From: Anaerolineae bacterium
Lineage (GTDB): Bacteria; Chloroflexota; Anaerolineae; JACRMK01
Reading direction: 5' to 3'
Assembly: GCA_038198935.1 (NCBI GenBank)
Contig: JBBPZQ010000103.1
Location: 25,649 to 89,648 of the forward strand
DNA: 64,000 nucleotides
Numbering within the stretch: the first letter of the stretch is position 1; each line of letters opens with the position of its first letter. The position numbers and the translations under genes are program-made. This document shows, one piece after another, positions 1,361 to 16,955 of this stretch. Under the pieces are notes generated by a model. It did no database searches, had not been told where the DNA came from, and worked only from the letters and a program-made list of their open reading frames with translations.

Positions 1361-1438
1361 CTAAACTGTTATTCTGAGCGAACTCCTGCGCTTCGCTATG
1401 GAGCCGCAGGCTTTGACGATTTCGGGAAGTAAGACGAC

Positions 1439-1804: not shown

Positions 1805-2163
1805 CAGCCTTGCGGGTTCATGTCCTTGTACACGCCAATGCGATTGCCCGATGGGTCGGCGAACATCGCAAACCAGCCGATGCCGGGAATCTCCGTCTTG
1901 GGTTCGAGCGTCTTGCCGCCGAGCGATTCGGCTTTCTTGAGGAACGATTCGATGTCGTCGGTGGCGACATAGATGACCACACCGCCACTGCTGTTCTCGG
2001 GCCCGGTGAAGCCGCCGCCAGGTCCGCCTTCCGCTCTAAAGGTGTAGTAGTTGAACTGCGGGGCATGGTCAATCTGCCAGCCGCACAATTCCTTGTAGAA
2101 CTCGCTCGCGGCTTTGGTGTCCTTTGCCGCAATCTCGACGTGCACGATCGGGTGAGTCTTCAT
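1804..2163 (-). CDS. VOC family protein (glyoxalase/bleomycin-resistance fold)
   Basis: 119 aa, HVEIAAKD...GWFAMFADPSGNRIGVY typical of the VOC superfamily. Confidence 0.85.
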   Translation of the reverse strand: MKTHPIVHVEIAAKDTKAASEFYKELCGWQIDHAPQFNYYTFRAEGGPGGGFTGPENSSGGVVIYVATDDIESFLKKAESLGGKTLEPKTEIPGIGWFAMFADPSGNRIGVYKDMNPQG

Positions 2164-2236
2164 CTGGAGCCTCCTGAATTGGGTTTGCGTTACGGCTTGT
2201 CACTGCACGTTGCAATGACTGTGTGTAACTGATGGG

Positions 2237-2617
2237 TTAAGATTTTTTCTGCGTCCGCGATTTCGCTTCTGTCCATGCTGCCTTGACGAGCCGCTTCAGC
2301 GCGGGACGGTGCGCTTCGGTCAGCGTTCTCACTTTGACATGCCTCATGCGCTTGCCTTCGCCTTCCAACAACTGTTCGGCATCGTCTAAGTAGCCGCCAT
2401 AGTCGAAGCCGAAGCGCACGTAGTCCTGTATCGGGCAAATGTAAACGATGCGGTTGCGCATGGATTCGCGGAACGAATACCCGAAGTGATTATGCCGCGC
2501 GACGAGGATTTCGTGCGCCTGCGGCATCGTGCACTTGACGAGCGCGCGCAGTGCGCGGCTGATCGTTCGGATGTCGTCTGGATAGCGCGCCAGAAATTCC
2601 TCGACAGCATCGCTCAT
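2237..2617 (-). CDS. DUF1801 domain protein (YdhG-like)
   Basis: 126 aa; DUF1801-like C-terminal region (RPALKRLVKAAWTEA). Confidence 0.7.
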   Translation of the reverse strand: MSDAVEEFLARYPDDIRTISRALRALVKCTMPQAHEILVARHNHFGYSFRESMRNRIVYICPIQDYVRFGFDYGGYLDDAEQLLEGEGKRMRHVKVRTLTEAHRPALKRLVKAAWTEAKSRTQKKS

Positions 2618-2618
2618 A

Positions 2619-3002
2619 TCACATCAACTTGCCGCGCTTGAATTTGTCCACGCCGCGCCGTGTCAACTGCGCCAACTCGCGGAACAGTTTTGGATCGGAC
2701 GCTTTGAAATTGAAACACGCTTTGCCTTGCATGTGCCGGCGCAGGTCGTCCGAGATGCCGTCGAGCAGTTCGGGAAAGACGTACACTGGGACCAAGTGAT
2801 AACTGACATAGTTCTTTTTGATCTGTACCGCGCCGAACATCAATTCCTTCTTCCACTGTTCGGCGTATGGCGTGCTCAGACAATAATTCTGCGGTGTGTC
2901 AGCGACGACGACGAGGCGCGGCTCGTGTTTTTGCAAGATCGCTTTCAGTTGCGCGAACACTGCCGAGAAGTCGGCTTGAGTTGTTTTCATCAAGGCAGCC
3001 AA
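2619..3002 (-). CDS. DUF1801 domain protein
   Basis: 127 aa; second DUF1801-like paralog directly upstream of the first. Start may be at MKTTQ (2990), overlapping the upstream VOC stop. Confidence 0.65.
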   Translation of the reverse strand: MAALMKTTQADFSAVFAQLKAILQKHEPRLVVVADTPQNYCLSTPYAEQWKKELMFGAVQIKKNYVSYHLVPVYVFPELLDGISDDLRRHMQGKACFNFKASDPKLFRELAQLTRRGVDKFKRGKLM

Positions 3003-3391
3003 TATTCCAGTTGGATATTGTCGGGGTCACGGAAGGCGACATACCAGTTTCCTGATGGCTTGAACTGTTCAACGCCGTTCGTCTCGACGCCTGCCGCTTG
3101 CAGCGTCGCGGTCAGTTCGTGCAGTGCCTCCATGCTCGGCGCACGAAACGAGATGTGATCAAGCCCGATACGGAACTCGCTGAAGCGGTCGGCGGCGATG
3201 GGCTTCGCCGACGGAATGAGGAAGAACCACATGTCGCTCAACATGAAATAGAATCCGCCGTGCGGCAGCATCTTCACGTCGAAGCCGAGCAGGTCGCCGT
3301 AGAACGCGCGCGAGCGTTCCAAATCGGAGATAGTGAGGATGATGTGGTCGAGTCCTATGGGTTGCATCTGTTTTAGTTCTCCCAATTGCAC
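2990..3391 (-). CDS. VOC family protein
   Basis: 133 aa; GLDHIILTISDLERSRAFY and GLDHISFRAP glyoxalase motifs. Confidence 0.8.
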   Translation of the reverse strand: MQLGELKQMQPIGLDHIILTISDLERSRAFYGDLLGFDVKMLPHGGFYFMLSDMWFFLIPSAKPIAADRFSEFRIGLDHISFRAPSMEALHELTATLQAAGVETNGVEQFKPSGNWYVAFRDPDNIQLEYWLP

Positions 3392-3421
3392 GACGATGAC
3401 TCTGCGGTTGTCAAGCAGCGA

Positions 3422-3805
3422 TCAAGCCTGATAAAGCTGGATGAGGTTGCCGCACGTGTCGTCAAATACGGCGATGGTCACGGGTCCCATTTGCGTTGGC
3501 TCCTGAGCGAACTTCACGCCCAGCGCCTTCATGCGCGCAAACTCACTTTGAATATCGTCAACGGCAAACGCGGTTAACGGTATGCCCTGCTCGAACAGAG
3601 CCTGTTGATAGGTCTTGGCGGCTGGGTTGACGTTTGGCTCCAACAGCAGCTCCGTGCCGTTGGGTTCGTCGGGCGAGACGACGGTCAGCCATTTGAACTC
3701 ACCGAGCGGGACGTCTTGTTTCTTCACGAATCCCAAGACCTCCATGTAAAACTTGAGCGCCTTGTCTTGGTCGTCCACGAAGACGCTATTCAGTCGAATT
3801 TTCAT
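3422..3805 (-). CDS. VOC family protein
   Basis: 127 aa; glyoxalase-like fold motifs. Confidence 0.8.
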   Translation of the reverse strand: MKIRLNSVFVDDQDKALKFYMEVLGFVKKQDVPLGEFKWLTVVSPDEPNGTELLLEPNVNPAAKTYQQALFEQGIPLTAFAVDDIQSEFARMKALGVKFAQEPTQMGPVTIAVFDDTCGNLIQLYQA

Positions 3806-3901
3806 TAAGGTCTTCCTCTTATGGTCTGCTGCAATCAGTGTAATAGCGCAGTGTCCCCGATGCTGTCGCTTGTTTTTACTGCACGATGTCAGCGCTCATT
3901 A

Positions 3902-4447
3902 TTATTTTCTGACAGGCTGGTACGTGAGGAGCACCACACCCGTGCGGGTCGTTTTGGAATCTACAAGTTTCATTCGCTTTAGATCGCTCCCATCCGTAAA
4001 GAGACGCTTGCCCTTACCCACAACGACAGGATGAATCATCAGCATCAATTCATCAAGCAGATCGTTTTGCAGCAGAGATCGAACAAGGGTGGGACTACCC
4101 TGGACTCCAATGTTCTTGCCGGGTTGCTGCTTGAGCTTGGCGATTTCCTCGGCGAGATTTCCCGTGATCAGTGTTGAGTTTTTCCACTCGACCTTTTTCA
4201 GAGTCGTTGAGACGATGTACTTGGGCACGTTGTTAATAAAGCTTGCATACGGTTCGTCAGTCGCGGTGGGCCAGTAGGATGCCCAATCCTGATAGGTCAC
4301 TCGCCCGAGCAGAGCGGCATCCAGTTCAGCGAGGGCTGTCCCCATGGCGGTCATCATGTCCTCGTCAAAGTTGTCGAATTGCCATTTGTCGGGCGATTCC
4401 GTAACGCCGTCCAGTGAGGTGAACAGTGCTGAAACGACTTGTCTCAT
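3902..4447 (-). CDS. dihydrofolate reductase family protein (RibD C-terminal domain, YwjB-like)
   Basis: 181 aa; FTSLDGV...GRVTYQDWASYWP...PKYIVSTTL...IHPVVVGKG motifs of the RibD_C/DHFR-like family. Confidence 0.8.
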   Translation of the reverse strand: MRQVVSALFTSLDGVTESPDKWQFDNFDEDMMTAMGTALAELDAALLGRVTYQDWASYWPTATDEPYASFINNVPKYIVSTTLKKVEWKNSTLITGNLAEEIAKLKQQPGKNIGVQGSPTLVRSLLQNDLLDELMLMIHPVVVGKGKRLFTDGSDLKRMKLVDSKTTRTGVVLLTYQPVRK

Positions 4448-4495
4448 TCCAATTACTCCTTTGCGTTACTCATTTATGTTGATTCATTCCATTGA

Positions 4496-4660
4496 TCATG
4501 TTGACTCCGGCATCGGCGCGTCGAGGAAGGCTATGATCATCGGCAGCAGCAGCTCGGCGCGCTGTACGAGCGTCACGTGCGAAGTGCCGGGCAGGATGGC
4601 GAGCTGTGAATGCGGCAGACCGACGGGCGAATCACCGAAGACGCCGCCGCCCAGCAGCCG
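4496..4660 (-). pseudogene. 3' remnant of an alpha/beta hydrolase gene
   Basis: Translated ...LLGGGVFGDSPVGLPHSQLAILPGTSHVTLVQRAELLLPMIIAFLDAPMPEST aligns to the C-terminus of the intact hydrolase at 7582..8394 (...LLGGGKRDGSWDGSG...LAVLPATTHYDII...FLDAPMPDEKGS). No N-terminal catalytic part is present. Confidence 0.55.
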
Positions 4661-4697
4661 AAATCGAGGCCGTTGACGTTGACGTACTTGCCGTGCG

Positions 4698-5282
4698 TCA
4701 TCTCGATGCCTCGTCTGAATTTTGAGGTGCCCCGTAGTAGAGCAAAACGTTGCCATTGTGAAACGTTTTGGTTCTGAGCAGTTTCAGATTCAGTTTGTCG
4801 TTCACGCCTTGAAACAACGGTGTGCCCTTGCCCAAGACGACGGGATTCACGATGATGCGAAATTCGTCAATCAAACCTGCGGGGATGAGGCTGGCCGCCA
4901 AGTTGGCGCTGCCGAAGATCGCCATGTCTTTGCCGGGCTGCTGCTTCAAGTTCGAGATTTCTACCTCCGCGTTCTTCGCCAGCCGTGAATGGCTCCAGTC
5001 TGCGCTGTCGAGTGTTCTGGAAAAGACGACCTTTGGCAGCTCGTTCATCTTCGCGGCGACGATGGGATCGCTCTCGATGGCGACTGGCGTGGGCCAGTAA
5101 CTCGCCATGAGTTGGTAGGTGAGTCTGCCGAATAGCAGGGTGTCCAGCTCGTCGAGCTGATGAATGGCGAACTTATTGAATTCGTCGTCAACGTTATGCC
5201 AACTGATGTCGTGGTTGGGTCCCTCGAAGAAACCGTCGAGCGTGACCAAATTGAACAAGATCACTTTTCTCATCACGGTCAC
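4698..5282 (-). CDS. dihydrofolate reductase family protein (RibD C-terminal domain)
   Basis: 194 aa paralog of 3902..4447 and 8536..9105 (LTYQLMASYWP, PKVVFSRTL, VNPVVLGKG). Confidence 0.8.
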   Translation of the reverse strand: MTVMRKVILFNLVTLDGFFEGPNHDISWHNVDDEFNKFAIHQLDELDTLLFGRLTYQLMASYWPTPVAIESDPIVAAKMNELPKVVFSRTLDSADWSHSRLAKNAEVEISNLKQQPGKDMAIFGSANLAASLIPAGLIDEFRIIVNPVVLGKGTPLFQGVNDKLNLKLLRTKTFHNGNVLLYYGAPQNSDEASR

Positions 5283-5286
5283 CGCT

Positions 5287-5721
5287 TCAGGCCTTCTTGG
5301 ATTTCTTGCGCGCCGATGTCGGCTTCGATTTCGCTCGTGCTGCGGATGTCTTGGGAGCGGTGGATTTGGCGCTGTTAAGCGTGGCAGCAGCGCGCACCAA
5401 CTCTTTCAACGCACTCTCGTCGAGGGCATCGCTTTCGTAGATGTCAACGGCGCGACTCGTCTTGGCGTCTAAACCAGCGTTGAACAACCCGTGCGGATCG
5501 GGCAGGGATGCGCCCTTGAAAAAGTTGAGCTTGACATGATCGGCGAACGCTCCAACCGCGACGACATTTCCGTTGTGCGACCACACGGGCGTGTCCCATT
5601 TCCATTCCTCGACGATCTGCTGGTCTGCTTCGCGGATCAGCTGGCGCAGCCGCGCGAGCCGCTTGCCGCGCCAATCGGCCAGTTCGTTAATGTGTTTGCT
5701 GATTTGCTCTGATACGTTCAT
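5287..5721 (-). CDS. DUF1801 domain protein with Lys/Ala-rich C-terminal tail
   Basis: 144 aa; YdhG-like N-terminal region plus basic tail. Confidence 0.65.
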   Translation of the reverse strand: MNVSEQISKHINELADWRGKRLARLRQLIREADQQIVEEWKWDTPVWSHNGNVVAVGAFADHVKLNFFKGASLPDPHGLFNAGLDAKTSRAVDIYESDALDESALKELVRAAATLNSAKSTAPKTSAARAKSKPTSARKKSKKA

Positions 5722-5749
5722 CGGCTAAAGAACTCCTTCGACTCACCTG

Positions 5750-5968
5750 CTACTGGTTGGCACGGAATGACAAGCCATGTGCCGCCAGCGCGCGGCGCAG
5801 TTGCTCCAGTGCATTGGGGCCAATGCCGTGCAACCGCCTGATGTCGTCTTCAGTGAACTTCGCCAGTTGAGCGAGTCGCCGAATGCCGGCGGCCGCGAGC
5901 GCCCGCTGCGCCGGCGCAGACAGCTTGGGTAGATTACTTTCGGCCTGATGTGCTTGTTGACGCTTCAT
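5750..5968 (-). CDS. small helix-hairpin-helix DNA-binding protein
   Basis: 72 aa; LHGIGPNALEQL HhH motif. Confidence 0.45.
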   Translation of the reverse strand: MKRQQAHQAESNLPKLSAPAQRALAAAGIRRLAQLAKFTEDDIRRLHGIGPNALEQLRRALAAHGLSFRANQ

Positions 5969-6021
5969 GACTTTTCCATTTGGAGTTGCGCCGCTGAATA
6001 TGTTTCACCACACAGACAGTT

Positions 6022-6282
6022 CTAGCCGCCGCTGAGCGCCATGCTGATGCGCACCGTATCGCCGCTGTGCAGCGGGTGAGACAGGTCGCTCGCGAGTTCC
6101 TGATTGACGAAAATCTTAATGTGCTCGCGAATGCGATCCTGCTCGTTGACGACGCGAAAGCGCATGCCGGGAAATTGGCGATCCAGATCGGCAAACAGCT
6201 CCACCAGCGTCGCGCCTTCGGCCTCGACCGTGCTGCGCTTGCCTGTGTACATGCGCAGCGGCGACGGCACATAGACTTTCAT
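6022..6282 (-). CDS. MoaD/ThiS-family ubiquitin-fold protein with C-terminal Gly-Gly
   Basis: Internal start MKVYV...; ends ...ISMALSGG*; start overlaps the stop of the upstream beta-propeller gene by 4 nt (ATGA). Confidence 0.7.
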   Translation of the reverse strand: MKVYVPSPLRMYTGKRSTVEAEGATLVELFADLDRQFPGMRFRVVNEQDRIREHIKIFVNQELASDLSHPLHSGDTVRISMALSGG

Positions 6283-7451
6283 GCGGGCTCGGCGACCTCG
6301 ACGGAATAGATTTCGGGAAGCGAATGAGCCACTTGCGCCCAACTCTCGCCTTCGTCAGCGCTAGCCCACACCTCGCCGCCCGTCGTGCCGAAATAGACGC
6401 CGACGGGATCGCGCGAATCGCAGCACATCGCTTGGCGCTTCAGACTGAACCACGCATCATGCGGCGGCAGCCCCTTGTCTTGGCGTTTCCAGCTTTTGCC
6501 CCCATCGCGCGTGATGTACGTCGCGGGTTTGCCATTCGGCGTGATGCGACCGAGTGGAAAGCCGCCGTCGAGCGGGAGCAACCAGACCGTGTCGGGGTCG
6601 CGCGGGTGCAGCACGATGGGGAACGAGTAGTCGCTGATGTCGTTTTCCTTCGGCAGGTTCTCGCCAACGCGCACCCATACACCCTCGGCGCGATCCATGC
6701 GATAGACACCGCAGTGACTTTGCTGGTACATGCGATCAGGATTGAGCGGGTGGATGCGCATGCAGTGCGGCTCCGCGCCGACTTCTGCATCCAGCGGCAC
6801 GCCGAGTTCCTGACAATCTACACCTTTATTCAATGGTTTCCAGTTCGCGCCCTGATCAGTGCTCTCGAATACGCCGCTGCCATTGGCCGAGAGACAGATA
6901 TACATGTGCTTCGGGTCGCGCGGATCAATCATGATTGAGTGCAAGGTCGAGCCGTCAGGCGGACCCTCTTGTGCGGGTCCGACCCATTGAGCGTTATTGG
7001 GGTGTTCGTTGAAGCCGGACACGGCTTGCCACGTCATACCAGCATCTTCGGAGCGGAACAGAGCGGGCGGCGACGTGCCAACATACCAAACCTGCGGCTC
7101 GCTCGGATGGCCGGGCGACAACCAGAAATTGTGATTCACAACTCGGCCCGTTTGTCCTTCGGGCGCTTTGGGGAATGCGGGCGGCTTCGTAGCTTCGGTC
7201 CACGTCTTGCCCATGTCCGTCGAACGAAAGATGGTGGGCCCCAAATGCCCCGTGCGAACCGTCATGACGATCGTTTGGCGGTCGCGCGGGTCCATCACCA
7301 TGTGATTCACGATGTTGCCGACGAACATGCCGTCGGACAGTTTCCACGTGCTGCGCGTTTCATCGCCATGAATGATGAACGCACCCTTGCGTGTGCCGAC
7401 CAGCAGCGAGAGTGCACCACGACCATTGCTCTTACCAGCGGTGTTTGACAT
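6279..7451 (-). CDS. BNR/Asp-box repeat beta-propeller protein (sialidase-like / glycosyl hydrolase BNR-repeat family)
   Basis: 390 aa; repeated S-x-D-x-G-x-T-W motifs (STDMGKTW, SEDAGMTW, STDQGANW, TRDGGKSW, SADEGESW). Confidence 0.7.
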   Translation of the reverse strand: MSNTAGKSNGRGALSLLVGTRKGAFIIHGDETRSTWKLSDGMFVGNIVNHMVMDPRDRQTIVMTVRTGHLGPTIFRSTDMGKTWTEATKPPAFPKAPEGQTGRVVNHNFWLSPGHPSEPQVWYVGTSPPALFRSEDAGMTWQAVSGFNEHPNNAQWVGPAQEGPPDGSTLHSIMIDPRDPKHMYICLSANGSGVFESTDQGANWKPLNKGVDCQELGVPLDAEVGAEPHCMRIHPLNPDRMYQQSHCGVYRMDRAEGVWVRVGENLPKENDISDYSFPIVLHPRDPDTVWLLPLDGGFPLGRITPNGKPATYITRDGGKSWKRQDKGLPPHDAWFSLKRQAMCCDSRDPVGVYFGTTGGEVWASADEGESWAQVAHSLPEIYSVEVAEPA

Positions 7452-7581
7452 TGTGTCTCCTCTTGTTTTGACTCGTGCACGCTTCGGAATCGCTCAGTTG
7501 TAAAGGCGTTACCGACTTCATCGGTGGGAGGTCTCCAGAGACCGATGTCGGGGTCAGAGACGCCTCCTACATTCTAATTGC

Positions 7582-8394
7582 TTAACTCCCTTTTTCATCG
7601 GGCATTGGCGCATCGAGGAACGACGTGACGACAGGCGCGAGCATTGGCGACATGATGATGTCGTAATGTGTCGTGGCCGGCAGGACGGCGAGCCGAGCAT
7701 TGGACATGCCCGATCCATCCCAGCTGCCGTCGCGTTTGCCGCCGCCCAGCAGCGCGAAGAACTCCGCAGCCTGAGCAGGGCTGATGCCGTCGGCATCGCC
7801 CATCACGATCAGCGTCGGCATCTTCAACAAAGCAACTGCCTCCGACCAGTCATAGTCCTGTGCGACGAGTTTGCCTGTCTTGCTCACCAGCGTCGTCCAA
7901 CCTTGCGGATCGGGTGCGACGCTCACATAGGCTTGGTGCATCGGCGACCCGACCCATGCCTGAGCCGACTCGGCATTGATCATTTTCATTGCCGCGCGCA
8001 TTTCGGAATACCAGGCATCGCTCTTGTGCGCGGTTGAGACGAGCGCCAGCTTGCGGATCACTTCGGGGTGTCGAATGGCGGTTTGCAGCGCGACACCGCC
8101 GCCGAGCGAGTAGCCCATCATGTCGGCTTTTTCAAAGCCAAGTTGCTGGATGAGCGCGGCGATGTCGTCCGCCATCTGCTCGAACGACATGGCGCGATTG
8201 AGCGCGCGCGTACGCCCATGCGCTTCCAACTCTATGGCGATGACCTGTCGGTTCTCGGCAAGCGCTGGCAGCACATCGGCGAACATCCCGATCACGCCCA
8301 TGCCGCCGTGCATCAGGATTAACGGCTTGCCCGTGCCGTAGGTCTCGTAATACATCTGCAGACCGTTCACACTTGCATAGTTGCCTTGTGTCAT
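7582..8394 (-). CDS. alpha/beta hydrolase
   Basis: 270 aa; HGGMG, GYSLGG nucleophile elbow, C-terminal His region. Confidence 0.85.
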   Translation of the reverse strand: MTQGNYASVNGLQMYYETYGTGKPLILMHGGMGVIGMFADVLPALAENRQVIAIELEAHGRTRALNRAMSFEQMADDIAALIQQLGFEKADMMGYSLGGGVALQTAIRHPEVIRKLALVSTAHKSDAWYSEMRAAMKMINAESAQAWVGSPMHQAYVSVAPDPQGWTTLVSKTGKLVAQDYDWSEAVALLKMPTLIVMGDADGISPAQAAEFFALLGGGKRDGSWDGSGMSNARLAVLPATTHYDIIMSPMLAPVVTSFLDAPMPDEKGS

Positions 8395-8535
8395 AATCTT
8401 TTCCCCAATATGACTCTCACGATCCAGGTCGTGTCCGGGTCAACGTTTTTGTCTTGAAACTGTACGCGTCGCATTTTACTTTCTGGCGGATGGCGACGTC
8501 GTTAAACTCCTTAAAGCTGCGCCATCGCAGATACG

Positions 8536-9105
8536 TCAGGCGATCGGCTTGTAGCATAGGAATACTTTCCCGTTCTTGAAGGTCCGCATCTTGCTTAGCT
8601 TGAGCGGCATCTTCTCTTGGACGCCATCGAACAGCGTCCTGCCACGCCCGATGACGACGGGATTCACTACGAGCTGGTATTCGTCAATCAACCCCGCCTG
8701 CGCCAACTGCGAGACGATGCTGCCGCTTCCCAAAATCGCCATAGCGGGTCCGGGCTCGTCCTTCAGCTTGCGTACTGCCGCCGCGAGGTTGCCCTTCACC
8801 AAGGTCGTATTGTTCCACGACGCTTTGTCCAGCGTTGTCGAGAACACGATCTTCGGCATCCGGTTCATACCTTCAGCTACGACAGGATCGTTCTGCAACG
8901 CAGCGGCTGTGGGCCAATAGCTGGCCATCAGCTCATACGTAATCCTGCCGAGCAATAACTGACCGCCGCCCTTTGCATTATCAGCGACGAACGCATCAAA
9001 CTCTGCATCCGCGTCCCCCGTGTGCGCCCAACTAAAGTCGTAGGGGTTCAGTGCGGCGAAGAATCCATCCAGGGTTACGTTGTTGAAGACGACCAATTTC
9101 CGCAT
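8536..9105 (-). CDS. dihydrofolate reductase family protein (RibD C-terminal domain)
   Basis: Start at MRKLVVFNNVTLDG; paralog of 3902 and 4698 genes. Confidence 0.8.
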   Translation of the reverse strand: MRKLVVFNNVTLDGFFAALNPYDFSWAHTGDADAEFDAFVADNAKGGGQLLLGRITYELMASYWPTAAALQNDPVVAEGMNRMPKIVFSTTLDKASWNNTTLVKGNLAAAVRKLKDEPGPAMAILGSGSIVSQLAQAGLIDEYQLVVNPVVIGRGRTLFDGVQEKMPLKLSKMRTFKNGKVFLCYKPIA

Positions 9106-9124
9106 CTTGCTTCTCCTTTGGCCA

Positions 9125-9673
9125 TCACTTGACCACACGGAACCACAAGTCTATTCGATCCGGTGACTCAATCACTCGAATTTGTTCCAGTTGCATGTGC
9201 TCGTTGGCGCCTTGCTCAAAAAAGCGCAGACCGTCGCCGAGCAGAATGGGCACGATACCGATCCGTATTTGATCAGCCAAGCCAACGCTGATGATCTGTC
9301 GGGCAGTATTCGCGCCGCCGATCACCATCACGTCTTTATCGTCGGCGGCTGTCTTCGCCTGTTCAATCGCGCTTTCGATTCCATCGGCGACGAATGTGAT
9401 CCTCAACTTGTCGTTTTGGCCTTTCGCCACTTTGTCTGGAACGTGATGCGTCAGCACGAAGATCGGTACTTGAAATTCGTAACCCGTGAAATCGCCTTGC
9501 GCCATGTCGTAGGCGCGCCTGCCCATCACGGCTGCACCGGTCGTCCGTATTTCTTCCTGAAGCATTTCGGTTTTTCGCAATGCGTCCAAATCAGGATAGA
9601 GTCGACTGATGTCGCCGTTGCGATCGGCGCTAAACCCGTCCAGTGACATGGTCGTGCCGACTATCACTTTGCT
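9125..9673 (-). CDS. dihydrofolate reductase family protein (RibD C-terminal-like)
   Basis: Start at MSKVIVGTTMSLDGF; ...VMVIGGANTARQ...IVPILLGDG motifs. Confidence 0.75.
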   Translation of the reverse strand, partial: SKVIVGTTMSLDGFSADRNGDISRLYPDLDALRKTEMLQEEIRTTGAAVMGRRAYDMAQGDFTGYEFQVPIFVLTHHVPDKVAKGQNDKLRITFVADGIESAIEQAKTAADDKDVMVIGGANTARQIISVGLADQIRIGIVPILLGDGLRFFEQGANEHMQLEQIRVIESPDRIDLWFRVVK

Positions 9674-9727
9674 CATTCGTTCTCCGCACGCTGATTCGTA
9701 ACCATCAAACACAACAACATGTGCACG

Positions 9728-10228
9728 TCAGGATCGGCTGGACTGCGCGGATTGCGAGGGTTGATCGTGCGCTCGCTGAAGCGCCGCGATGTCGAGCTTC
9801 TTCATTTTGAGCAATGCTTGCATCACGCTCTGCGCTTTGGTTGGATCCGGGTCGGACATCAATTCGCCGATCACCGTCGGGACGATTTGCCACGAGAGCC
9901 CGTACTTATCCTTCAGCCAGCCGCATTGGCTTTCTTCGCCACCCTCGGTGAGCTTGTCCCACAACTCGTCTACCTCTGCCTGTGTCTGGCAGTTGACCAT
10001 GAGCGAGATGGCTTCCGTGAATTTGAATTCGGGACCGCCATTGAGCGCCGTGAATTCTTGCCCTTCGAGTTGGAACAGCACCGTCAGAGCCATATCTGCC
10101 GGGCGCGGTGCGCCTTCGCCGTAGCGGCTCACGTTCAAGACTTTTGAATTCTTGAAGATGGAGACATAAAAATTCGCCGCCTCTTCGGCATTGTCGTCGA
10201 ACCACAAGCATGGGGTGATCTTTTGCAT
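9728..10228 (-). CDS. VOC family protein, PhnB-like
   Basis: 166 aa; MQKITPCLWFDDNAEEAANFY...SWQIVP typical of PhnB-like proteins. Confidence 0.8.
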   Translation of the reverse strand: MQKITPCLWFDDNAEEAANFYVSIFKNSKVLNVSRYGEGAPRPADMALTVLFQLEGQEFTALNGGPEFKFTEAISLMVNCQTQAEVDELWDKLTEGGEESQCGWLKDKYGLSWQIVPTVIGELMSDPDPTKAQSVMQALLKMKKLDIAALQRAHDQPSQSAQSSRS

Positions 10229-10291
10229 CGTTTGACTCCTTGTCCTCAGGTTAAGTTCAGTTCTTTACCACGTCCTGCAAGATGACTCACG

Positions 10292-10758
10292 CTACGAGGG
10301 ACTGGCGGGCTGGCCGCCCCACGTCTCAGGCGCGACATCAATCACCGATTGGCTAAACGTCCAGCGGTGACCGCCGAGGTCTTCGACGCTGTACTGACGT
10401 TCGCCGAAAGGGTAGGTCTCGGGTGGGCGGACGATGTGCGCGCCGCAACCTTTGACATGTTCGTAATGGCGATCCACATCGGCGACGCGCACCACATCAG
10501 TGAGTGTGTCACCTCGCCGCGTCGTGGCTGTAATGTATGTCCTGCACTCTGCGCGACCACGACGAGCGACGCAGCGCCCAAGACGAGTTGCGCGCGATGA
10601 TTCGCAATGCGCAGTCGCTCGCGGAAGCCAAACGTCTGGCAGAGCCAAGTGACGGCGCTATCCATGTCGCCATAGACCAGTTCAGGAATAATCGTGCCGG
10701 GCGGCATCGAGCGGTTGACGATCATACCAGACGGCTTGAATTGAGTGTCTGCAACCAT
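10292..10758 (-). pseudogene. VOC/glyoxalase family gene disrupted by a frameshift
   Basis: The N-terminal half (MVADTQFKPSGMIVNRSMPPGTIIPELVYGDMDSAVTWLCQTFGF...) and the C-terminal half (DTLTDVVRVADVDRHYEHVKGCGAHIVRPPETYPFGERQYSVEDLGGHRWTFSQ) are in two overlapping frames (10342..10758 and 10292..10648). Confidence 0.55.
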
Positions 10759-10761
10759 ACG

Positions 10762-11022
10762 CTATCCGCCGCTCAACGCGCCGATGATGTGAATCGTGTC
10801 GCTAGGTTGCGGCGGCGCACTGAGCGCATGTGCTTGCTCGGCGTTCACGAAAATTTTGATGTGCTCACGAATCTCGTCCTGCTCGTCAATGATGCGGAAG
10901 CGCACGCCGGGAAACTGCCGATCCAAGTCGCGCGTCAGTTCGTCCAGTGTCGCGCCGTGCGCCTCGACGGTGCGCTGGTTGTGGGTGTAGCCTCGCAAGT
11001 GCGTCGAGACATGCACCTTCAT
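10762..11022 (-). CDS. MoaD/ThiS-family ubiquitin-fold protein with C-terminal Gly-Gly (second copy)
   Basis: Start MKVHV...; ends ...IIGALSGG*; 4-nt ATGA overlap with the upstream BNR gene. Confidence 0.7.
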   Translation of the reverse strand: MKVHVSTHLRGYTHNQRTVEAHGATLDELTRDLDRQFPGVRFRIIDEQDEIREHIKIFVNAEQAHALSAPPQPSDTIHIIGALSGG

Positions 11023-12182
11023 CGCGCGTGCTCCATCACTTCGACGCCGAACACTTCGGGCAAATCTTTCACGAGCAGTTGCCACGTTTCGCCTTCGTCG
11101 TCGCTGCCCCACACTTCGCCGTTGGTCGTGCCGAAATAGACGCCGACGGGATCATGGCGATCCGTCGTCAACGCTTGACGCTTGACGTTGTACCACGCCT
11201 GCTGCTTTGCGAGACCCTTGTTCTGCTTCTTCCACGTCTTGCCCGCGTTGCGCGTGACGTATGCGGATGGTCTGCCGCTGACGTTGGTGCGGGGCCAGAC
11301 GAGCGTGCCGTCCATCGGGAAGACCCACGCCACATCCGAGTCGCGCGGATGCAGCGCAATGGGGAAGCCGACGTCGCCCACTTCCTTCGGCATGTTGTCG
11401 CCGATGCGCACCCATTTGCCTTCGGCGCGATCCATGCGATAGATGCCGCAGTGATTCTGCTGATAGAGCCGATCGGGGTCGAGCGGGTGCAGTTGCAGGC
11501 AGTGAGGGTCGTGACCGTATTCGGGGTCGGGAATCGGAATGAAGTCGGCGGCACAGCCCTTGTTGAGTGGCTTCCAGTCCTCGCCGCCGTCGCTGCTCTC
11601 GAACACGCCGGCGGTCGAGATGCCGAAGTAGATGTGGTCGGGATTGCGCGGATCAATTTGGATCGAGTGCAGCGTCGCGCCGCCGGGTGGCGCATCTTGC
11701 AACGAGCCAACCCACTTCGTGCGCATTGCATGCTCGTTGAAGCCGGGCATCCCTTCCCACGTCTCGCCACCATCCATCGAGCGAAACAAGCCGGGCGGCG
11801 ACGAGCCTGCGTACCACACGCCGGGCTGCAACGCGTGACCGGGTGACAGCCAGAAGACATGGTGCACCGACTCGCCTTTTTCTCCTTCGGCTGCTTTCGG
11901 GAAGGCGGGCGGCTTGCTCGCTTCCGTCCAGGTCTCGCCCATGTCGCTCGAGCGGAACACCGTCGGTCCCAGATGGCCCGTGCGCGCCGACATCAAGATC
12001 GTGCGATGGTCGCGCGGATCGGCGACCATGTGATACGCGATGCTGCCGAGCAGGAAGGGACCCGACAACTTCCAACTCTGCCGCGAGCGATTGCCGTGCA
12101 GCATGAAGCCGCCTTTGCGTGTGGCGACAAGCAGGGTGACTGGACCGTTTGCGGGCGCGGAAGCGCCATTTTGTTTGGGCAT
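11019..12182 (-). CDS. BNR/Asp-box repeat beta-propeller protein (second copy)
   Basis: 387 aa paralog of 6279..7451 (SSDMGETW, SMDGGETW, SSDGGEDW, TRNAGKTW, SDDEGETW). Confidence 0.7.
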   Translation of the reverse strand: MPKQNGASAPANGPVTLLVATRKGGFMLHGNRSRQSWKLSGPFLLGSIAYHMVADPRDHRTILMSARTGHLGPTVFRSSDMGETWTEASKPPAFPKAAEGEKGESVHHVFWLSPGHALQPGVWYAGSSPPGLFRSMDGGETWEGMPGFNEHAMRTKWVGSLQDAPPGGATLHSIQIDPRNPDHIYFGISTAGVFESSDGGEDWKPLNKGCAADFIPIPDPEYGHDPHCLQLHPLDPDRLYQQNHCGIYRMDRAEGKWVRIGDNMPKEVGDVGFPIALHPRDSDVAWVFPMDGTLVWPRTNVSGRPSAYVTRNAGKTWKKQNKGLAKQQAWYNVKRQALTTDRHDPVGVYFGTTNGEVWGSDDEGETWQLLVKDLPEVFGVEVMEHAR

Positions 12183-12276
12183 GTATTCACCGGTCAGAGT
12201 TTCATTCGGAGCAGCGCGCAGAATCTCTTTGGGGCTGCTGTCTTAGCGCGCCGCTCAGAATGTTTGTAACGGAGAC

Positions 12277-12663
12277 TTAGCGCTGCGGCGATTGCAAGAC
12301 ATCGAACGTGTTGCCGTACAAATCCTCGAACACAAAGTCGGTGCCCCAAGGATTTTGGCGCGGCTCGTTGTGGACTTTGACGCCGCGCGACTTCAATCGT
12401 TCGTAGTCCTCTTGAATATTGTCGGAGTCGAGCACCCACGTGCCTTGCTTGCCAATCAGCGAGCGCTGCTGCTCGTCCATCGTCATGCCGAGCACGATCT
12501 CCAACTCCTTCTGCTCGGCCGGCGCGACGGTCAGCCAGCGATAATTGGGCACCGTAGTCGCGTCGTCGGTGCGGACACTGAAGCCGAGTTTGTTGACGTA
12601 GAAGTCTTTGGCTTCGTCCTGATCGTTCACCCAGATCGTAACAACGGCTAGTTTGCGAATCAT
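12277..12663 (-). CDS. VOC family protein
   Basis: 128 aa glyoxalase-like. Confidence 0.8.
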   Translation of the reverse strand: MIRKLAVVTIWVNDQDEAKDFYVNKLGFSVRTDDATTVPNYRWLTVAPAEQKELEIVLGMTMDEQQRSLIGKQGTWVLDSDNIQEDYERLKSRGVKVHNEPRQNPWGTDFVFEDLYGNTFDVLQSPQR

Positions 12664-12687
12664 GGACTACTCCTGTAGAACATAATC

Positions 12688-13131
12688 TTAGGATTGCTGC
12701 TGTGACTGCGCTGCGGCACGGCGGCGCACTTCCTCGGGCGACACATCTTCGACGTGTGTGGCGAGCCACCACTGATTGCCGAACGCGTCTTTCACGCCGG
12801 CGCTGCGGTCGCCATAGAATTGATCTTCGGGCGCGCGCAGCGAGGTAGCGCCGGCTTTCAGCGCGCGGCGATACGCCTCATCCGAGTCATTGACATACAG
12901 GTGAATCATGGCGGGCATCTGGCTGGACGCGTCCGATGCCTCCGCCAGCATCACGACCGAATCGCCTATTTTCACCTCGGCATGTGCGATGCGTCCGTTT
13001 GGATCCGTCATGCGCACCGTCTCCTGCGCGTCGAATGCATCTTGTAAAAATTGCATCAACGCTGGCGCGCGCTGAACGACGAGGTATGGCGTCACGCTGT
13101 GATACCCGTCGGGGATTGGTTTGACAGCCAT
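12688..13131 (-). CDS. VOC family protein, PhnB-like
   Basis: Start at MAVKPIPDGYHSVTPYLVV; ...GNQWWLATH motif. Confidence 0.75.
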   Translation of the reverse strand: MAVKPIPDGYHSVTPYLVVQRAPALMQFLQDAFDAQETVRMTDPNGRIAHAEVKIGDSVVMLAEASDASSQMPAMIHLYVNDSDEAYRRALKAGATSLRAPEDQFYGDRSAGVKDAFGNQWWLATHVEDVSPEEVRRRAAAQSQQQS

Positions 13132-13157
13132 CGGTGTTTCTCCTTTGCGCTTGTGGC

Positions 13158-14558
13158 TCAAGCTAGCGAGAGTGAATTCAAGAAGTCGAGCACGATGCGA
13201 TTGAACTCGTCGGGTCGTTCCATGTTGGGCAGATGTGCGGTGCCGCGCATCACTCTCGTCTGCGCGTTGGGGATTTGCTCGCCCAGCACTTTGCATGTCT
13301 GGTCAGTCTCCGTTGGGTCAAGGTCACCATAGATGATGAACGTCGGCATCCGAATCTCGTTCAAGCGGTTCACCGCTGGCGGGTCGAGCTGCTTGGGCGT
13401 CCACTCGGTCGTGTCCTCGTCCTGCATCATCGTGCGCACCTTGTCGCGCATCGCGGCGGGTACACGCTCGCGCGGTTGCAGCGGTCCATCAACCCACACC
13501 TGCATCTGCAACTCAATATATTGCGCGCTGTCTTTGTCTTTCCAGGCTTGTTGGCCGCGCGCGAACGTTTCTTTTTCCCACTGTGCTTTCGCGTCGTCCC
13601 CCATCGGGGGCCAGTAGCCGCTCAGACCCGGGGCGACGGCGATGAACGCCGCTACCATCTCCGGATGTTCGAGCGCGAAATCAATCGTCAAGCCGCCGCC
13701 CATCGAGACGCCGCACAGATACGCGCGCTCCACCTCGAGATGGTTGAGCAGGGCGAACAGGTCGTCGCGCAGGCTGTAGGTGCCGGCCTCGGTTTTGGAT
13801 TTGCCGAAGCCGCGCATGTCCCAACGGATCACGCGATAACGTTCCGCGAACTCCGCAACCTGCTCGTCCCACATGCGATGGTCGGCAATGCCTGCATGCA
13901 GCAAGACGAGTGGATGTCCTTCGCCCTGCTCCTCGTAATACAAATTACAGCCGTCCACTTTGATGAAGCCTGATGACATCGCTATCCCTCCATGCTGTCG
14001 CAAGCTGCGCGCAATCTCGTCGCGTTTGTTGCTGACGGCAGCCGTGAGCGCAGTGCGGTTCTGGTAATCGCGCGCGTTCACGTCCGCGCCGTGCACGAGC
14101 AGCCACTCGACCAACGGTGGGTGATTGAAATACACAGCGCCATGCAGCGGCGGACTAATACCGTCGCCGCCGTTCACAGGCGCGCCGTGCGCGAACAGCA
14201 GCTCGGCAATGTCCAAACGACCGCTGATGGCGGCAAAATAGAGCGCGGGCAAGCCGTGTGCGCCGCTGGCTTTTGCGAGTGAGGCATCGCCTTGCAGCAT
14301 TGCCGCGACGCGCTCATGCTCGCCGAGCATTGCGGCGGTGCAGATGTCAAGCGGCGCGCCAGCATCCAGCAAGAGTTGCACAATCTCCCGCTGGCCCGTT
14401 TGTGCTGCCGCTTGAATCGGGGTCTCTATCCAACTGGCATTCGTCGTCGCTAACACGGGGTATTGCGCCAGTAGCGTCTTGACGCGCGCGAAGTCACCAT
14501 GACAGACGCCGACGAATTCATCAATGATGTTTTGGGGGATGGCTGTGCTCGAACTCAT
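13158..14558 (-). CDS. ankyrin-repeat domain fused to an alpha/beta hydrolase domain
   Basis: 466 aa; N-terminal ankyrin repeats (TPIQAAAQTGQREIVQLLLDAGAPLD...), C-terminal hydrolase (HPLVLLHAG, GVSMGGG). Confidence 0.75.
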   Translation of the reverse strand: MSSSTAIPQNIIDEFVGVCHGDFARVKTLLAQYPVLATTNASWIETPIQAAAQTGQREIVQLLLDAGAPLDICTAAMLGEHERVAAMLQGDASLAKASGAHGLPALYFAAISGRLDIAELLFAHGAPVNGGDGISPPLHGAVYFNHPPLVEWLLVHGADVNARDYQNRTALTAAVSNKRDEIARSLRQHGGIAMSSGFIKVDGCNLYYEEQGEGHPLVLLHAGIADHRMWDEQVAEFAERYRVIRWDMRGFGKSKTEAGTYSLRDDLFALLNHLEVERAYLCGVSMGGGLTIDFALEHPEMVAAFIAVAPGLSGYWPPMGDDAKAQWEKETFARGQQAWKDKDSAQYIELQMQVWVDGPLQPRERVPAAMRDKVRTMMQDEDTTEWTPKQLDPPAVNRLNEIRMPTFIIYGDLDPTETDQTCKVLGEQIPNAQTRVMRGTAHLPNMERPDEFNRIVLDFLNSLSLA

Positions 14559-14712
14559 CGTCGTCGCTCCAAAAAAAAATCACCACAGCGATGCAGTTGC
14601 TCGTAAACCTCCCGTGCTCTCTGCGCCTCTGCGGTGAACTAGACTAACCCCATTGTATCACAACGTGCCCTCGACCGTACAAATATTCAGTTGTCACTGC
14701 ACTCTCCCGCAT

Positions 14713-14810
14713 CCCAGACCCTCTGCCGATTTATCGCTCCGAGCGGAGCGATAAATCGGCAGAGAGGTGAACTCCTCCCCTACAACGCGGGGGAGGGCTG
14801 GGGTGGGGTC
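14713..14810. repeat. intergenic nested palindromic element of the GC-rich family
   Basis: Perfect 21-bp IR CTCTGCCGATTTATCGCTCCG/CGGAGCGATAAATCGGCAGAG, then CTCCTCCCC-N8-GGGGGAGGG, flanked by CCCAGACCC...GGGGTGGGGTC. Confidence 0.65.
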
Positions 14811-14815
14811 GAAAT

Positions 14816-15085
14816 TTATTCTGCCACGCCCAACCAGAAGTGATTGGGCAGAATCGAACGCGCTTGCTTCAACATTACTTGAGGTATGTGCGCTGCCGCG
14901 ACGCTCTTGCCGCTGTTCGCTTTCAGATTGATCGTCGGCTGCGCGTCGCCGACGGTGCGCGGGTTCGCATAGCACAGGTTCGGCGGCTCGCCGTACTTCT
15001 CTTGGTAACGCTTGGCGGCGCGCTCGATCTTTTCCTCCAACGGCCGTTTCGGATCATCGTCAAACCAAAGCATCCCGATCTTCAT
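14816..15085 (-). CDS. hypothetical protein
   Basis: ORF starting MKIGMLWFDDDPKRP; no recognisable family. Confidence 0.35.
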   Translation of the reverse strand: MKIGMLWFDDDPKRPLEEKIERAAKRYQEKYGEPPNLCYANPRTVGDAQPTINLKANSGKSVAAAHIPQVMLKQARSILPNHFWLGVAE

Positions 15086-15485
15086 AGTGAAAATCCTCCT
15101 GCCCCACAATTTTAAATTCACGGGCAGGGCGCGAGTAAGTTGCCATGGGGCTCGGCGGGTTGAGGTACGCGCCCTGAACAGGCTGCTGGTACTGCGTGCT
15201 TTGCACGTACTGCGGCGCAGCGTATGGCTGCGGTTGAATGACCATGATGCGCGGCGCTTCTTCGCGCGGCGCGGGTTCGGAGCGAGTGAGGGGCTGTGCG
15301 TAGCGCGTGGTCTCGCGCGAGCGCAATGTCAGCCACAGCACGACAGCCGTCATCGGCATGGAGGCGACGACGCCGATCACAGAGCCGACGATCACCGCCA
15401 TCGCTTGGTCGCTGAGTCGCTGACCAATCAGAACGGCGAGCGTGATGCTGAACGCCAACACGCCGAAGGCAATCAATCTGTTCAT
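15060..15485 (-). CDS. hypothetical membrane protein (2 predicted TM helices, Pro/Gln-rich C-terminus)
   Basis: 141-aa ORF with hydrophobic N-terminal segments. Confidence 0.4.
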   Translation of the reverse strand: MNRLIAFGVLAFSITLAVLIGQRLSDQAMAVIVGSVIGVVASMPMTAVVLWLTLRSRETTRYAQPLTRSEPAPREEAPRIMVIQPQPYAAPQYVQSTQYQQPVQGAYLNPPSPMATYSRPAREFKIVGQEDFHYEDRDALV

Positions 15486-15510
15486 GTGTCGCTCCTGTGG
15501 AGTACGCGAT

Positions 15511-15786
15511 TTAATCGCTTTGGGTTCCGACGATAGTAGTCACCTCTTTCCAGATTCGAGTTTTAGGTATGGTTAAAGTTAGAGGTTCTGGCAAAACATT
15601 GGGCAGTGCGATGCCCAGAGCAATGGCGACGGCGCGCAGCGCATCACAGTAGCCGTCGCGATAAGTTTGTAATTCAGAAAGATCATTGGCATTGGCGGCG
15701 AGTCGCACGAGCATCGTGCCGTTCGCCTCGTTCAGCGCGAGAAGCGTGTGCTGGATGTCTTCCTTAAACCACACGTCGAGGCTCAC
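15511..15786 (-). CDS. hypothetical small protein, translationally coupled to the FtsK-like gene
   Basis: 91 aa; start overlaps the upstream gene stop (ATGA). Confidence 0.4.
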   Translation of the reverse strand: MSLDVWFKEDIQHTLLALNEANGTMLVRLAANANDLSELQTYRDGYCDALRAVAIALGIALPNVLPEPLTLTIPKTRIWKEVTTIVGTQSD

Positions 15787-16826
15787 GCAGCCATCCTCTG
15801 CAATAGCGCCGACTGTGGCATGCGCATTGCACTCAGCAACTCGTGCGTATCATCGCGCGTAGCGAACGCGGATTGGAAGCGAATCGTCTGCCCCTCGGCG
15901 ACGAGCAGAAACTCGCCGTGTCCGCCCAACTTCTCTGCGCCTGTGCCGCCGATGCCTGAGGCGGTGCGCGCGTCTTCCGGGCTTGCGACTTTGCCGATGA
16001 GGCGCGTCGGGAAGTTGCTCTTCACGATGCCGCTCATCACTTTGCTGCTCGGTTTTTGCGTCGCCGCGATGACGTGAAAGCCGGCTTCGCGTCCGCGCTG
16101 CACCAGCCGCATCAACGGCTGCTCGATTTGCTTGCCGCCGGTTTGCAGCAAGTCTGCCAACTCGTCAATCGCGATCACCACGCGTGGACGGCTCACTTGC
16201 TCCGCGTCGCGCCGCTCCATGTGCGCCACCAATTTATTCAACACTTGAATCGCATCGTTCGTCTCGCGCACGGCGGGGTAGAGCAGGTGCGGCAATTCGC
16301 TCAGGTGTTCGAAGCCGCGCCCTTTGGGGTCAATCAACACCAAGCGCAATTCGCTGGAGCGATTGAAGCGCGCGAGCGAGAGCAACATGCTGCGCACGAG
16401 CGCGGTCTTGCCCGAACCTGTCGTGCCCGCGACCAGCACATGGGCGATGGATGGACTTGACAAGCGCAGCAGCAATGGATTGCCGTTCGCATCCAAGCCG
16501 AGCACGGCCGTGGTGGCGGGTGCATTGCCCAATTGCTTGCACAACTTTGCGAGCGCAACCGGCTCGCGGTCGTCGCGCGGCAACTCGATCTGTACCATGC
16601 CGCCCTCGCGCTGGATGCGCACGTTCGACGCGCCGAGCGCGAGCGCGATCTCCTCGGTCAACGCGGCGAGCTTGTTCAACTTGATGCTGGGCGACAGATT
16701 GAGATTGAAGCGCACGACGCTTGGCGTGACCGTGCCGCCCGCGACATGCGCGGGCAGCTTGTGCTGCGCCAAGACCATTTCAATCTGGTCGGCTTGCAAG
16801 TTGAGGCGAGTGGTTCGGTTGCTCAT
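15783..16826 (-). CDS. FtsK/SpoIIIE family ATPase (motor domain only)
   Basis: 347 aa; Walker A GTTGSGKT, Walker B VVIAIDELADL, FtsK-like layout without a membrane or gamma domain. Confidence 0.75.
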   Translation of the reverse strand: MSNRTTRLNLQADQIEMVLAQHKLPAHVAGGTVTPSVVRFNLNLSPSIKLNKLAALTEEIALALGASNVRIQREGGMVQIELPRDDREPVALAKLCKQLGNAPATTAVLGLDANGNPLLLRLSSPSIAHVLVAGTTGSGKTALVRSMLLSLARFNRSSELRLVLIDPKGRGFEHLSELPHLLYPAVRETNDAIQVLNKLVAHMERRDAEQVSRPRVVIAIDELADLLQTGGKQIEQPLMRLVQRGREAGFHVIAATQKPSSKVMSGIVKSNFPTRLIGKVASPEDARTASGIGGTGAEKLGGHGEFLLVAEGQTIRFQSAFATRDDTHELLSAMRMPQSALLQRMAA

Positions 16827-16901
16827 AGAACAATTGTGCTAAACGACTATAAGCCCGTTTGGGAATGGCTGTCAAGTAAGTTGGGATAAGTTTGGGAAAA
16901 A

Positions 16902-16930: not shown

Positions 16931-16955
16931 ACGAATTCTGAATTGCGAGGGAAAC

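Follow-up and report, generated by a model that had tools for sequence, protein, structure and literature searches.

The question raised by this locus is what a small ubiquitin-like protein (Ubl) with a free C-terminal Gly-Gly (GG) does as the translationally coupled partner of a β-propeller. The locus lies in a stretch of 64,000 nucleotides, hereafter the window, on contig JBBPZQ010000103.1 of an Anaerolineae bacterium (GenBank assembly GCA_038198935.1), which carries two pairs of a propeller gene and a Ubl gene on its minus strand (Table 1). A first reading of the letters, the original prediction, had described both pairs with ATGA overlaps and GG ends, and the open reading frames (ORFs) and junctions read as claimed: at both junctions, the TGA stop codon of the propeller gene shares bases with the ATG of the Ubl gene. 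The core idea of that prediction holds: the pair is a Ubl/sulfur-carrier module not yet characterised, and its propeller partner is unusual.

The pairing is a strongly conserved, translationally coupled module. Scanning a collection with a single genome for each species gave at least 599 matching stretches; the module comprises 493 clusters at 50% identity and spans more than ten phyla. The best 80 loci were analysed. These 80 include Chloroflexota, Nitrospirota, Acidobacteriota, Beta-, Gamma- and Deltaproteobacteria (with Cupriavidus isolates), Planctomycetota, Bacteroidota, Elusimicrobiota, Acidimicrobiia, Clostridia, Leptospiraceae, Bdellovibrio and Binatia. Two of them could not be evaluated because the contig ends at the stop codon of the propeller gene; in all of the remaining 78 (clade A), a ThiS/MoaD-like ORF lies directly downstream of the propeller gene on the same strand. 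Conservation of the two genes as neighbours in other genomes had been set beforehand as a test of the original prediction and was thus borne out. The two other conditions named in advance as refuting it, a Ubl without a β-grasp fold or a conserved GG tail and a propeller that is an ordinary secreted sialidase with a signal peptide, do not apply either, as described below. The spacing is tight, with a 4-nt overlap in 32/78 loci, a 1-nt overlap in 7/78, and an overlap or a gap of at most 10 nt in 58/78.

The association also survives changes of gene order. Distant clades were found by tblastn against annotated plasmids and chromids at 30–37% identity, and in one of these, clade B, the Ubl gene is located immediately upstream of the propeller gene, with the pairing retained. 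Clade B comprises Ralstonia solanacearum, R. pseudosolanacearum GMI1000, Cupriavidus metallidurans CH34, Burkholderia cenocepacia and other Burkholderia, Paraburkholderia, Mitsuaria, Chondrinema (Bacteroidota) and Pseudomonas aeruginosa. In P. aeruginosa, the pair belongs to the core chromosome; at least 1000 contigs, the longest reaching 7.1 Mb and PA14 among them, carry its protein cluster, which has generic names only, and the pair is surrounded by YciI and VOC genes, a sigma factor gene and pmpM. A region of this species labelled as plasmid pZYPA1927 (L092, 1-11092) carries core chromosomal pmpM, rhtA, YciI, VOC and sigma factor genes. In addition, two natural fusions, both verified in the DNA, join a Ubl to the N-terminus of the propeller: P0259 (454 aa), in which the Ubl part ends in AVSGG and is connected to the first strand by a linker of ~9 residues, and P0334 (453 aa, on a 1.49-Mb contig), in which it ends in AISGG and the linker has ~13–17 residues. 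Natural ThiS–ThiG and MoaD–MoaE fusions are known (PMC1779556), and P0259 and P0334 constitute the same kind of evidence for the pairing. Three independent metagenome sequences (P0241, P0257 and P0372) show a propeller cut near residue 315–350, without blade 6 and the closing strand, in frame with a Ubl ending in ALSGG; the propeller part of P0241 is without its last ~45 residues. Chimeric assembly, deletion or genuine variation could each account for them.

Some members of the wider family lack the GG or the Ubl itself. Downstream of the propeller gene, Arthrobacter (L094) encodes a Ubl with an intact GG, Nonomuraea (L093, 6081-6395) a Ubl ending in PALA with no GG, as checked in the DNA, and two Streptomyces (L083 and L095) no Ubl, which looks like stepwise Ubl loss within an actinobacterial propeller clade. 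For three Rhodobacterales propellers, no Ubl was found within 6 kb. Two single observations concern solo propellers: the Ubl-less propeller gene of Rhodobacter sp. CZR27 (L085, 3595-7122) is divergent from the ergothioneine biosynthesis genes egtB-egtD, and that of Fuscovulum (L087) adjoins genes for an SCO copper chaperone and a multicopper oxidase. A link to ergothioneine was examined and is not systematic.

By sequence and predicted structure, the small protein is a β-grasp Ubl of the sulfur-carrier type, nearest to the CysO carriers. Both copies exceed the cutoff of the Pfam ThiS model PF02597 (36.0 and 27.5 bits; cutoff 22.5), which agrees with the initial assignment to the MoaD/ThiS type. 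The best solved sequence relatives are CysO from Amycolatopsis orientalis (4N6E_B, E-value 1e-10, a full-length phmmer match) and from Mycobacterium tuberculosis (3DWG_C, E-value 9e-7), with identities to CysO of 28–32%. When an AlphaFold2 model of the Ubl (predicted local distance difference test score 69) was compared with known structures by Foldseek, CysO was again the best match (TM-score 0.73), followed by a MoaD-related protein, SAMP1, MoaD and Urm1. Scores for more specific models remained below their cutoffs: the canonical MoaD model TIGR01682 gave 15.9 bits for copy 2 and no match for copy 1 (cutoff 66.15), the SAMP1 model NF041918 gave 33.6 and 32.3 bits (cutoff 60), and the archaeal MoaD model TIGR01687 gave 35 and 27.8 bits (cutoff 49.5). 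Because the TIGR01682 score is far below the cutoff and the gene is co-duplicated with the propeller gene, the Ubl is not a housekeeping MoaD. A protein identical to the Ubl of copy 1 (P0121) is present in NCBI/Logan.

The terminal GG is exact in 75/78 clade-A Ubls, and the other three have 1–8 additional residues after it; counted over all loci, in clade A and beyond, the exceptions to a free GG are four Ubls with such short extensions, the GG-less Ubl of Nonomuraea and the two fusions. Short extensions after GG recall the precursor forms of the sulfur carriers HcyS and QbsE. In clade B, 9/9 Ubls end in (S/T)GG and their bodies have diverged to E-values of about 1e-12 to 1e-24. Retention of the terminal GG in both clades despite diverged bodies argues for chemistry at the Ubl C-terminus.

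The large protein is a cytoplasmic Asp-box propeller of the 3B7F family and not a sialidase. It aligns end to end with PDB entry 3B7F (E-value 5e-153), and its sequence and its fold, with seven blades in the strand map of the model and multiple Asp-boxes, place it in that family. 3B7F is Reut_B4987 (YP_299179.1) of Cupriavidus pinatubonensis (Ralstonia) JMP134, a structural-genomics target named “glycosyl hydrolase, BNR repeat”. In a 2009 survey of Asp-box propellers, it is the only structure given for a “functionally uncharacterized” family, which has seven blades, five Asp-boxes and a 9x11 Å central tunnel, and no partner is named (PMC2716378). The window propellers do not differ in kind from this protein, which was solved alone with its Ubl partner unnoted. 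Both match the BNR/Asp-box and Sortilin-Vps10 repeats of Pfam, with Sortilin-Vps10 as the top match, and DCAF and WD40 adaptors are among the generic fold neighbours.

The description of the partner as a sialidase-like propeller therefore stands for the Asp-box propeller and fails for the sialidase. GH33 and GH74 enzymes share Asp-box (BNR) repeats with the window propellers and are the source of the database names; public annotations call the propeller an “exo-alpha-sialidase” and the Ubl a “molybdopterin converting factor small subunit” or “ThiS”. GH33 enzymes are six-bladed, carry an F/YRIP motif and, in the case of bacterial exo-sialidases, are usually secreted. In contrast, the window propellers have seven blades, contain no F/YRIP motif in either sequence, score below the threshold of the sialidase-type BNR_2 model (21.6 and 11.1 bits; threshold 31.4) and lack a signal peptide, their polar, disordered N-terminus leading directly into the first strand; a GH33 exo-α-sialidase is thereby ruled out. 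Similarity to GH74 is weak (E-value 2e-6, 20% identity), and a GH74 xyloglucanase is ruled out by the single propeller, since two tandem seven-bladed propellers forming a cleft are required. Models for Ycf48/HCF136 were also not matched (PSII_BNR PF14870, 20.1 bits versus 27; NF010237, 16.8 versus 326), and the COG4447 genes of the literature occur in operons of another kind, together with an RND exporter and DUF1302/1329.

Residue conservation was analysed over 81 clade-A propellers and then over 19 sequences spanning four clades. Conserved polar residues form a regular pattern in the former, and six residues, K22, H171, H229, H246, R302 and R339, are invariant in 19/19 of the latter. In the strand map of the model, K22, H246 and R302 fall in B–C loops and R339 in a D–A loop, and H171 and H229 open inner strands, so that all six would be carried by top-face elements. 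The top face, opposite the Asp-boxes, is the functional face of Asp-box propellers (PMC2716378). Cys247 occurs in 96% of clade A and in most of clade B, and no Ubl-less member has it; P. aeruginosa and Mitsuaria carry Asn and Arthrobacter carries His at this position, and all three have a GG-ended Ubl. These three lineages rule out Cys247 as a required Ubl-handling residue, and it is retained here as associated, not required. His69 is part of the putative site in Ubl-linked members, usually together with Cys247.

Enzymes that could act on the Ubl were sought near the pairs. The original prediction had noted no activating enzyme (E1), JAMM or sulfurtransferase gene nearby, and among the larger ORFs of the window that were scanned, a set that left out a 916-aa ORF (27863-30613) and a 758-aa ORF overlapping a WD40 gene, there is indeed no E1 (ThiF), JAMM or rhodanese. 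In a Pfam census of the 146 genes immediately flanking the 78 loci, none of these three is among the 25 commonest families (each with at least two genes); the pyridoxal phosphate (PLP) enzyme CysM and Mec+/JAMM are likewise found neither in the window nor among those 25. An E1 screen of the loci and the window with a MoeB sequence and a motif pattern gave no match, and it was weak, with no positive control. The census yielded 133 families, the commonest of which, an S-adenosylmethionine-dependent methyltransferase in related Nitrospira, occurs 8 times, and sequence clustering around the 80 loci showed no additional gene in more than 9/80. These counts do not bear out the proposed functional tie to VOC, DHFR-like and DUF1801 genes. 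VOC, YciI and PhnB-like genes flank the pair in 3/146, 2/146 and 2/146 cases, plus the P. aeruginosa locus; stress-island-like neighbours thus recur occasionally, and the tie to the array found in the window is not general. Furthermore, upstream regions across the loci have no common k-mer, Rfam detected no riboswitch or regulatory RNA over window positions 1–20000, and none of the four pair proteins was matched by PADLOC, so that anti-phage defence is not supported; given this result and the absence of such neighbours, a bacterial Ubl conjugation or defence operon (E1-E2-JAMM, Bil, CBASS-Cap2) was rejected.

Two further associations were considered and rejected. For maturation of the molybdenum cofactor (Moco) or of xanthine dehydrogenase (XDH), MoCoBD occurs near the pair in 2/99 loci and MoaE/XdhC in 1/99, which is chance level. 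The individual cases are the P0334 fusion locus (L099, 3272-10228), with the order Fer2, MoCoBD, FAD_binding_5, an 81-aa ORF, DUF1326, the fusion and GNAT; a similar cluster of XDH/carbon monoxide dehydrogenase type with GNAT, 5 kb from the pair, at L081 16700-21164; and Chondrinema (L084, 2512-7098), where the pair adjoins cysteine desulfurase-SufU-MoaE and XdhC. A role in Moco sulfuration may exist in some lineages, the link being seen in 2/99 loci. A DNA-repair link, which had been prompted by LexA and a weak DNA_alkylation match in the window, was dropped, with Tag adjacent in 2/99 loci only; in these two, a gene for a Tag-type 3-methyladenine DNA glycosylase (Adenine_glyco) lies directly upstream of the pair (L081 9368-9973 and L002 7354-7911), and the two proteins are 66% identical.

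For the role of the module, the explanation tentatively preferred here, at somewhat less than even confidence, is that an orphan CysO-like carrier, activated in trans, serves a dedicated propeller client at a top-face site. The free GG of the Ubl would be adenylated and thiocarboxylated by a housekeeping E1 of the MoeB, MoeZ or ThiF type encoded elsewhere in the genome, and the cytoplasmic seven-bladed Asp-box propeller would be its dedicated client enzyme. Translational coupling would provide the two proteins in a fixed ratio, and the two could form a direct complex. Through its flexible ALSGG tail, the Ubl may then reach a site at the top face and central channel comprising Lys22, His171, His229, His246, Arg302 and Arg339, where the thiocarboxylate sulfur would be handed over to a probably common substrate. 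Propeller clades without a Ubl may use another donor, for example free sulfide, comparable to CysK versus the CysO-dependent CysM.

Known carrier systems offer partial parallels to this proposal. In CysO–CysM of M. tuberculosis and CysO–BexX of A. orientalis, a small β-grasp carrier likewise has a terminal GG, and work on BexX in A. orientalis is said to have found an E1 encoded elsewhere and common to several carriers. CysK, the sulfide-using client paralog in the CysO system, parallels the Ubl-less propeller clades. The clients differ, being a PLP enzyme (CysM), a ThiG-like TIM barrel (BexX) and, here, a seven-bladed Asp-box propeller; unlike the CysO system, the present module has no Mec+/JAMM gene, its carrier is 28–32% identical to CysO, and its thiocarboxylate is a prediction. 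In MoaD–MoaE and ThiS–ThiG, the GG tail enters the active site of the client. As in the present module, these carriers adjoin, are coupled to and are sometimes fused with their clients (PMC1779556), whereas the Ubl described here fails the MoaD equivalog model, has no adjacent MoaE or ThiG, and has a partner of unrelated fold.

Several points weigh against the proposed carrier–client relationship. An E1, sulfurtransferase or JAMM gene linked to the pair was found neither in the window nor in ~100 loci. The N-terminal Ubl fusions bury the GG unless a protease frees it, and the core function of the propeller is not strictly Ubl-dependent, because the Nonomuraea Ubl is GG-less and the Streptomyces and Rhodobacterales propellers are Ubl-less. 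Cys247, the obvious candidate for a sulfur or thioester acceptor, is missing from the Ubl-linked propellers of P. aeruginosa, Mitsuaria and Arthrobacter, and the apparent three-dimensional placement of the conserved residues comes from topology. To our knowledge, none of the known clients of sulfur carriers is a propeller.

Much of this would also fit a Ubl that is never adenylated and acts as a non-covalent subunit, chaperone or regulator, its ALSGG tail docking into the channel or a top-face pocket in a sortilin-like manner, an explanation that is judged unlikely. It accords with the lack of linked enzymes at every locus, with the internal GG of the fusions and with the Ubl-less and GG-less relatives, and a stable heterodimer fits stoichiometric translational coupling. 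Sortilin/Vps10 is also an Asp-box propeller, and its tunnel binds the free C-termini of peptide ligands, a possible analogy for docking of the GG tail; sortilin is a eukaryotic, luminal receptor with 10 blades, and its likeness to the window propellers is confined to the repeats. The tunnel of 3B7F (PMC2716378), the Sortilin-Vps10 match and the existence of non-catalytic β-grasp subunits such as TmoB (PMC1779556) point the same way. However, β-grasp proteins without C-terminal chemistry normally lose the GG, which is almost always terminal here, and the closest relatives of the Ubl are true thiocarboxylate carriers. A conjugated Ubl of the SAMP/TtuB/Urm1 type, attached to lysines via an E1 in trans, in which the propeller is either the receptor for substrates or the principal target, comparable to the WD40/DCAF adaptors in eukaryotic ligases, is very doubtful. 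E1-only conjugation occurs in archaea and Thermus, and the GG end, the β-grasp fold, the sub-threshold SAMP1 and archaeal MoaD matches, the DCAF/WD40 fold neighbours and the invariant Lys22 in a top-face loop would all be consistent with such a modifier, but this lysine is equally conserved in propellers without a Ubl.

At the other extreme, incidental adjacency of a housekeeping MoaD or ThiS, serving Moco or thiamine, and an unrelated BNR glycosidase is effectively excluded. The names in public annotations suggest it, as do MoaE, XdhC and cysteine desulfurase near the Chondrinema pair and the XDH-type genes near the pair in L081 and L099; against it stand the adjacency in every evaluable locus, the coupling, the co-duplication, the pairing retained in inverted order and the true fusions, together with a TIGR01682 score of 15.9 versus 66, the scarcity of MoCoBD (2/99) and MoaE (1/99) at the loci and the absence of sialidase features. 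A more ambitious form of the preferred carrier–client explanation is quite unlikely as it stands: the 3B7F propeller would represent a new Ubl-dependent enzyme class, the first β-propeller client of a ThiS/MoaD carrier, in which a His hub (joined by Cys in most Ubl-linked members) houses a metal or reactive centre accepting sulfur from a Ubl thiocarboxylate threaded into the central channel. In a still bolder variant, the propeller itself would handle the GG terminus without a classical E1.

The history of the two window copies was read from their relatives. An identity of 55–60% had been estimated by eye, close to the aligned values given in Table 1 (E-value 1e-174 for the propellers), and an old tandem duplication under selection had been proposed. 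The tandem part of that proposal is overstated: 3.3 kb and five genes separate the pairs, and the closest outside relatives are 84% (propeller copy 1) and ~70% (copy 2) identical, compared with 58% between the copies. Since each copy is closer to proteins of other organisms than to its neighbour, no recent tandem duplication took place; by these identities, the copies would be either old paralogs or the result of separate acquisitions, and in both cases the propeller and Ubl genes would have travelled jointly. The sigma-70-like match upstream of pair 1 is possibly its own promoter, as a candidate only, with a regional count of such matches not above chance.

Table 1. Positions of the two gene pairs and of associated signals in the window.
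Feature	Position	Strand	Description
Propeller gene, copy 1	6279..7451	minus	390 aa; 3B7F/Reut_B4987-family cytoplasmic seven-bladed Asp-box β-propeller
Ubl gene, copy 1	6022..6282	minus	86 aa; ThiS/MoaD-family, CysO-like β-grasp; C-terminus ALSGG
ATGA stop/start overlap, propeller 1 to Ubl 1	6279..6282	minus	read in sequence
Propeller gene, copy 2	11019..12182	minus	387 aa; 58% identity to copy 1
Ubl gene, copy 2	10762..11022	minus	86 aa; 64% identity to copy 1; C-terminus ALSGG
ATGA stop/start overlap, propeller 2 to Ubl 2	11019..11022	minus	read in sequence
GGAG Shine-Dalgarno-like motif	8–11 nt upstream of the 11019..11022 overlap (pair 2)	minus	read in sequence
Weak sigma-70-like promoter match	7571..7598	minus	~120 nt upstream of propeller 1

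Around the pairs, the minus strand from 1439 to 14558 forms a dense array of small stress-island paralogs, with five VOC/glyoxalase genes, four RibD_C (DHFR-like) genes of 22–50% mutual identity, two DUF1801 genes, one PhnB-like 3-dmu-9_3-mt gene and two α/β hydrolase genes, one of them fused to ankyrin repeats (13158-14558); ORFs of the array without a Pfam match include 2619-3002, 10342-10758 and 12194-12772. Farther along, LexA (16956-17627) adjoins a short FtsK/SpoIIIE-like ATPase with alpha and motor domains only (15783-16826, 347 aa), and a heavy-metal P-type ATPase with an HMA domain follows at 17846-20275. At 15–20 kb from the pairs lie a class-V aminotransferase gene (cysteine-desulfurase-like, 26533-27855) and an MnmA-type gene (32330-33445). 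Between them sit the 916-aa ORF and an AAA_16 ATPase gene (30610-31881), over which the GC content at 28001-30000 is 0.49 versus ~0.59 elsewhere; this segment could represent an insertion of foreign DNA, perhaps of STAND or defence-like type, that splits a sulfur-relay neighbourhood. Eukaryote-like signalling proteins are encoded at 425-1360 (a kinase with a RIO domain) and at 36223-40273 (a WD40 propeller of 595 aa, followed by the overlapping 758-aa ORF).

No functional study emerged from literature searches on 3B7F, COG4447, PA1355/PA1356 and MoaD/ThiS combined with propeller, sialidase or BNR, and no paper on the pairing appeared in the literature searched, in line with the original remark that it was not recognised as a described system; coverage was incomplete, and an earlier mention is possible. 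Two foundational surveys of prokaryotic Ubls mention no propeller or BNR partner. The P. aeruginosa pair presumably corresponds to PA1355/PA1356. One paper credits PA1356 with promoting colonisation and biofilm formation (PMC11538994), a claim that apparently rests on the “sialidase” annotation and would thus be an annotation error carried into the literature.

Ubiquitin signalling has its evolutionary root in sulfur-carrier and Ubl proteins, and the known clients, MoaE, ThiG, CysM, TtuA and BexX among them, have each exposed a distinct sulfur chemistry. Here, such a carrier is tied by adjacency, coupling, co-duplication and fusion to a family for which a crystal structure has been available since 2007 and which is mislabelled in databases as sialidase or glycosyl hydrolase. 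At a minimum, a pervasive annotation error is corrected and 3B7F gains a partner. With its new client class, the putative carrier-plus-client module is a good lead towards a client so far unrecognised in ubiquitin-like sulfur chemistry, and the pair is directly testable, being present in the core genome of the tractable P. aeruginosa, R. solanacearum, B. cenocepacia and C. metallidurans. If the 3B7F propeller did prove to be a Ubl-dependent enzyme class, the core genomes of P. aeruginosa, Ralstonia and Burkholderia, along with many soil phyla, would harbour a previously unrecognised sulfur-insertion or sulfur-detoxification reaction.

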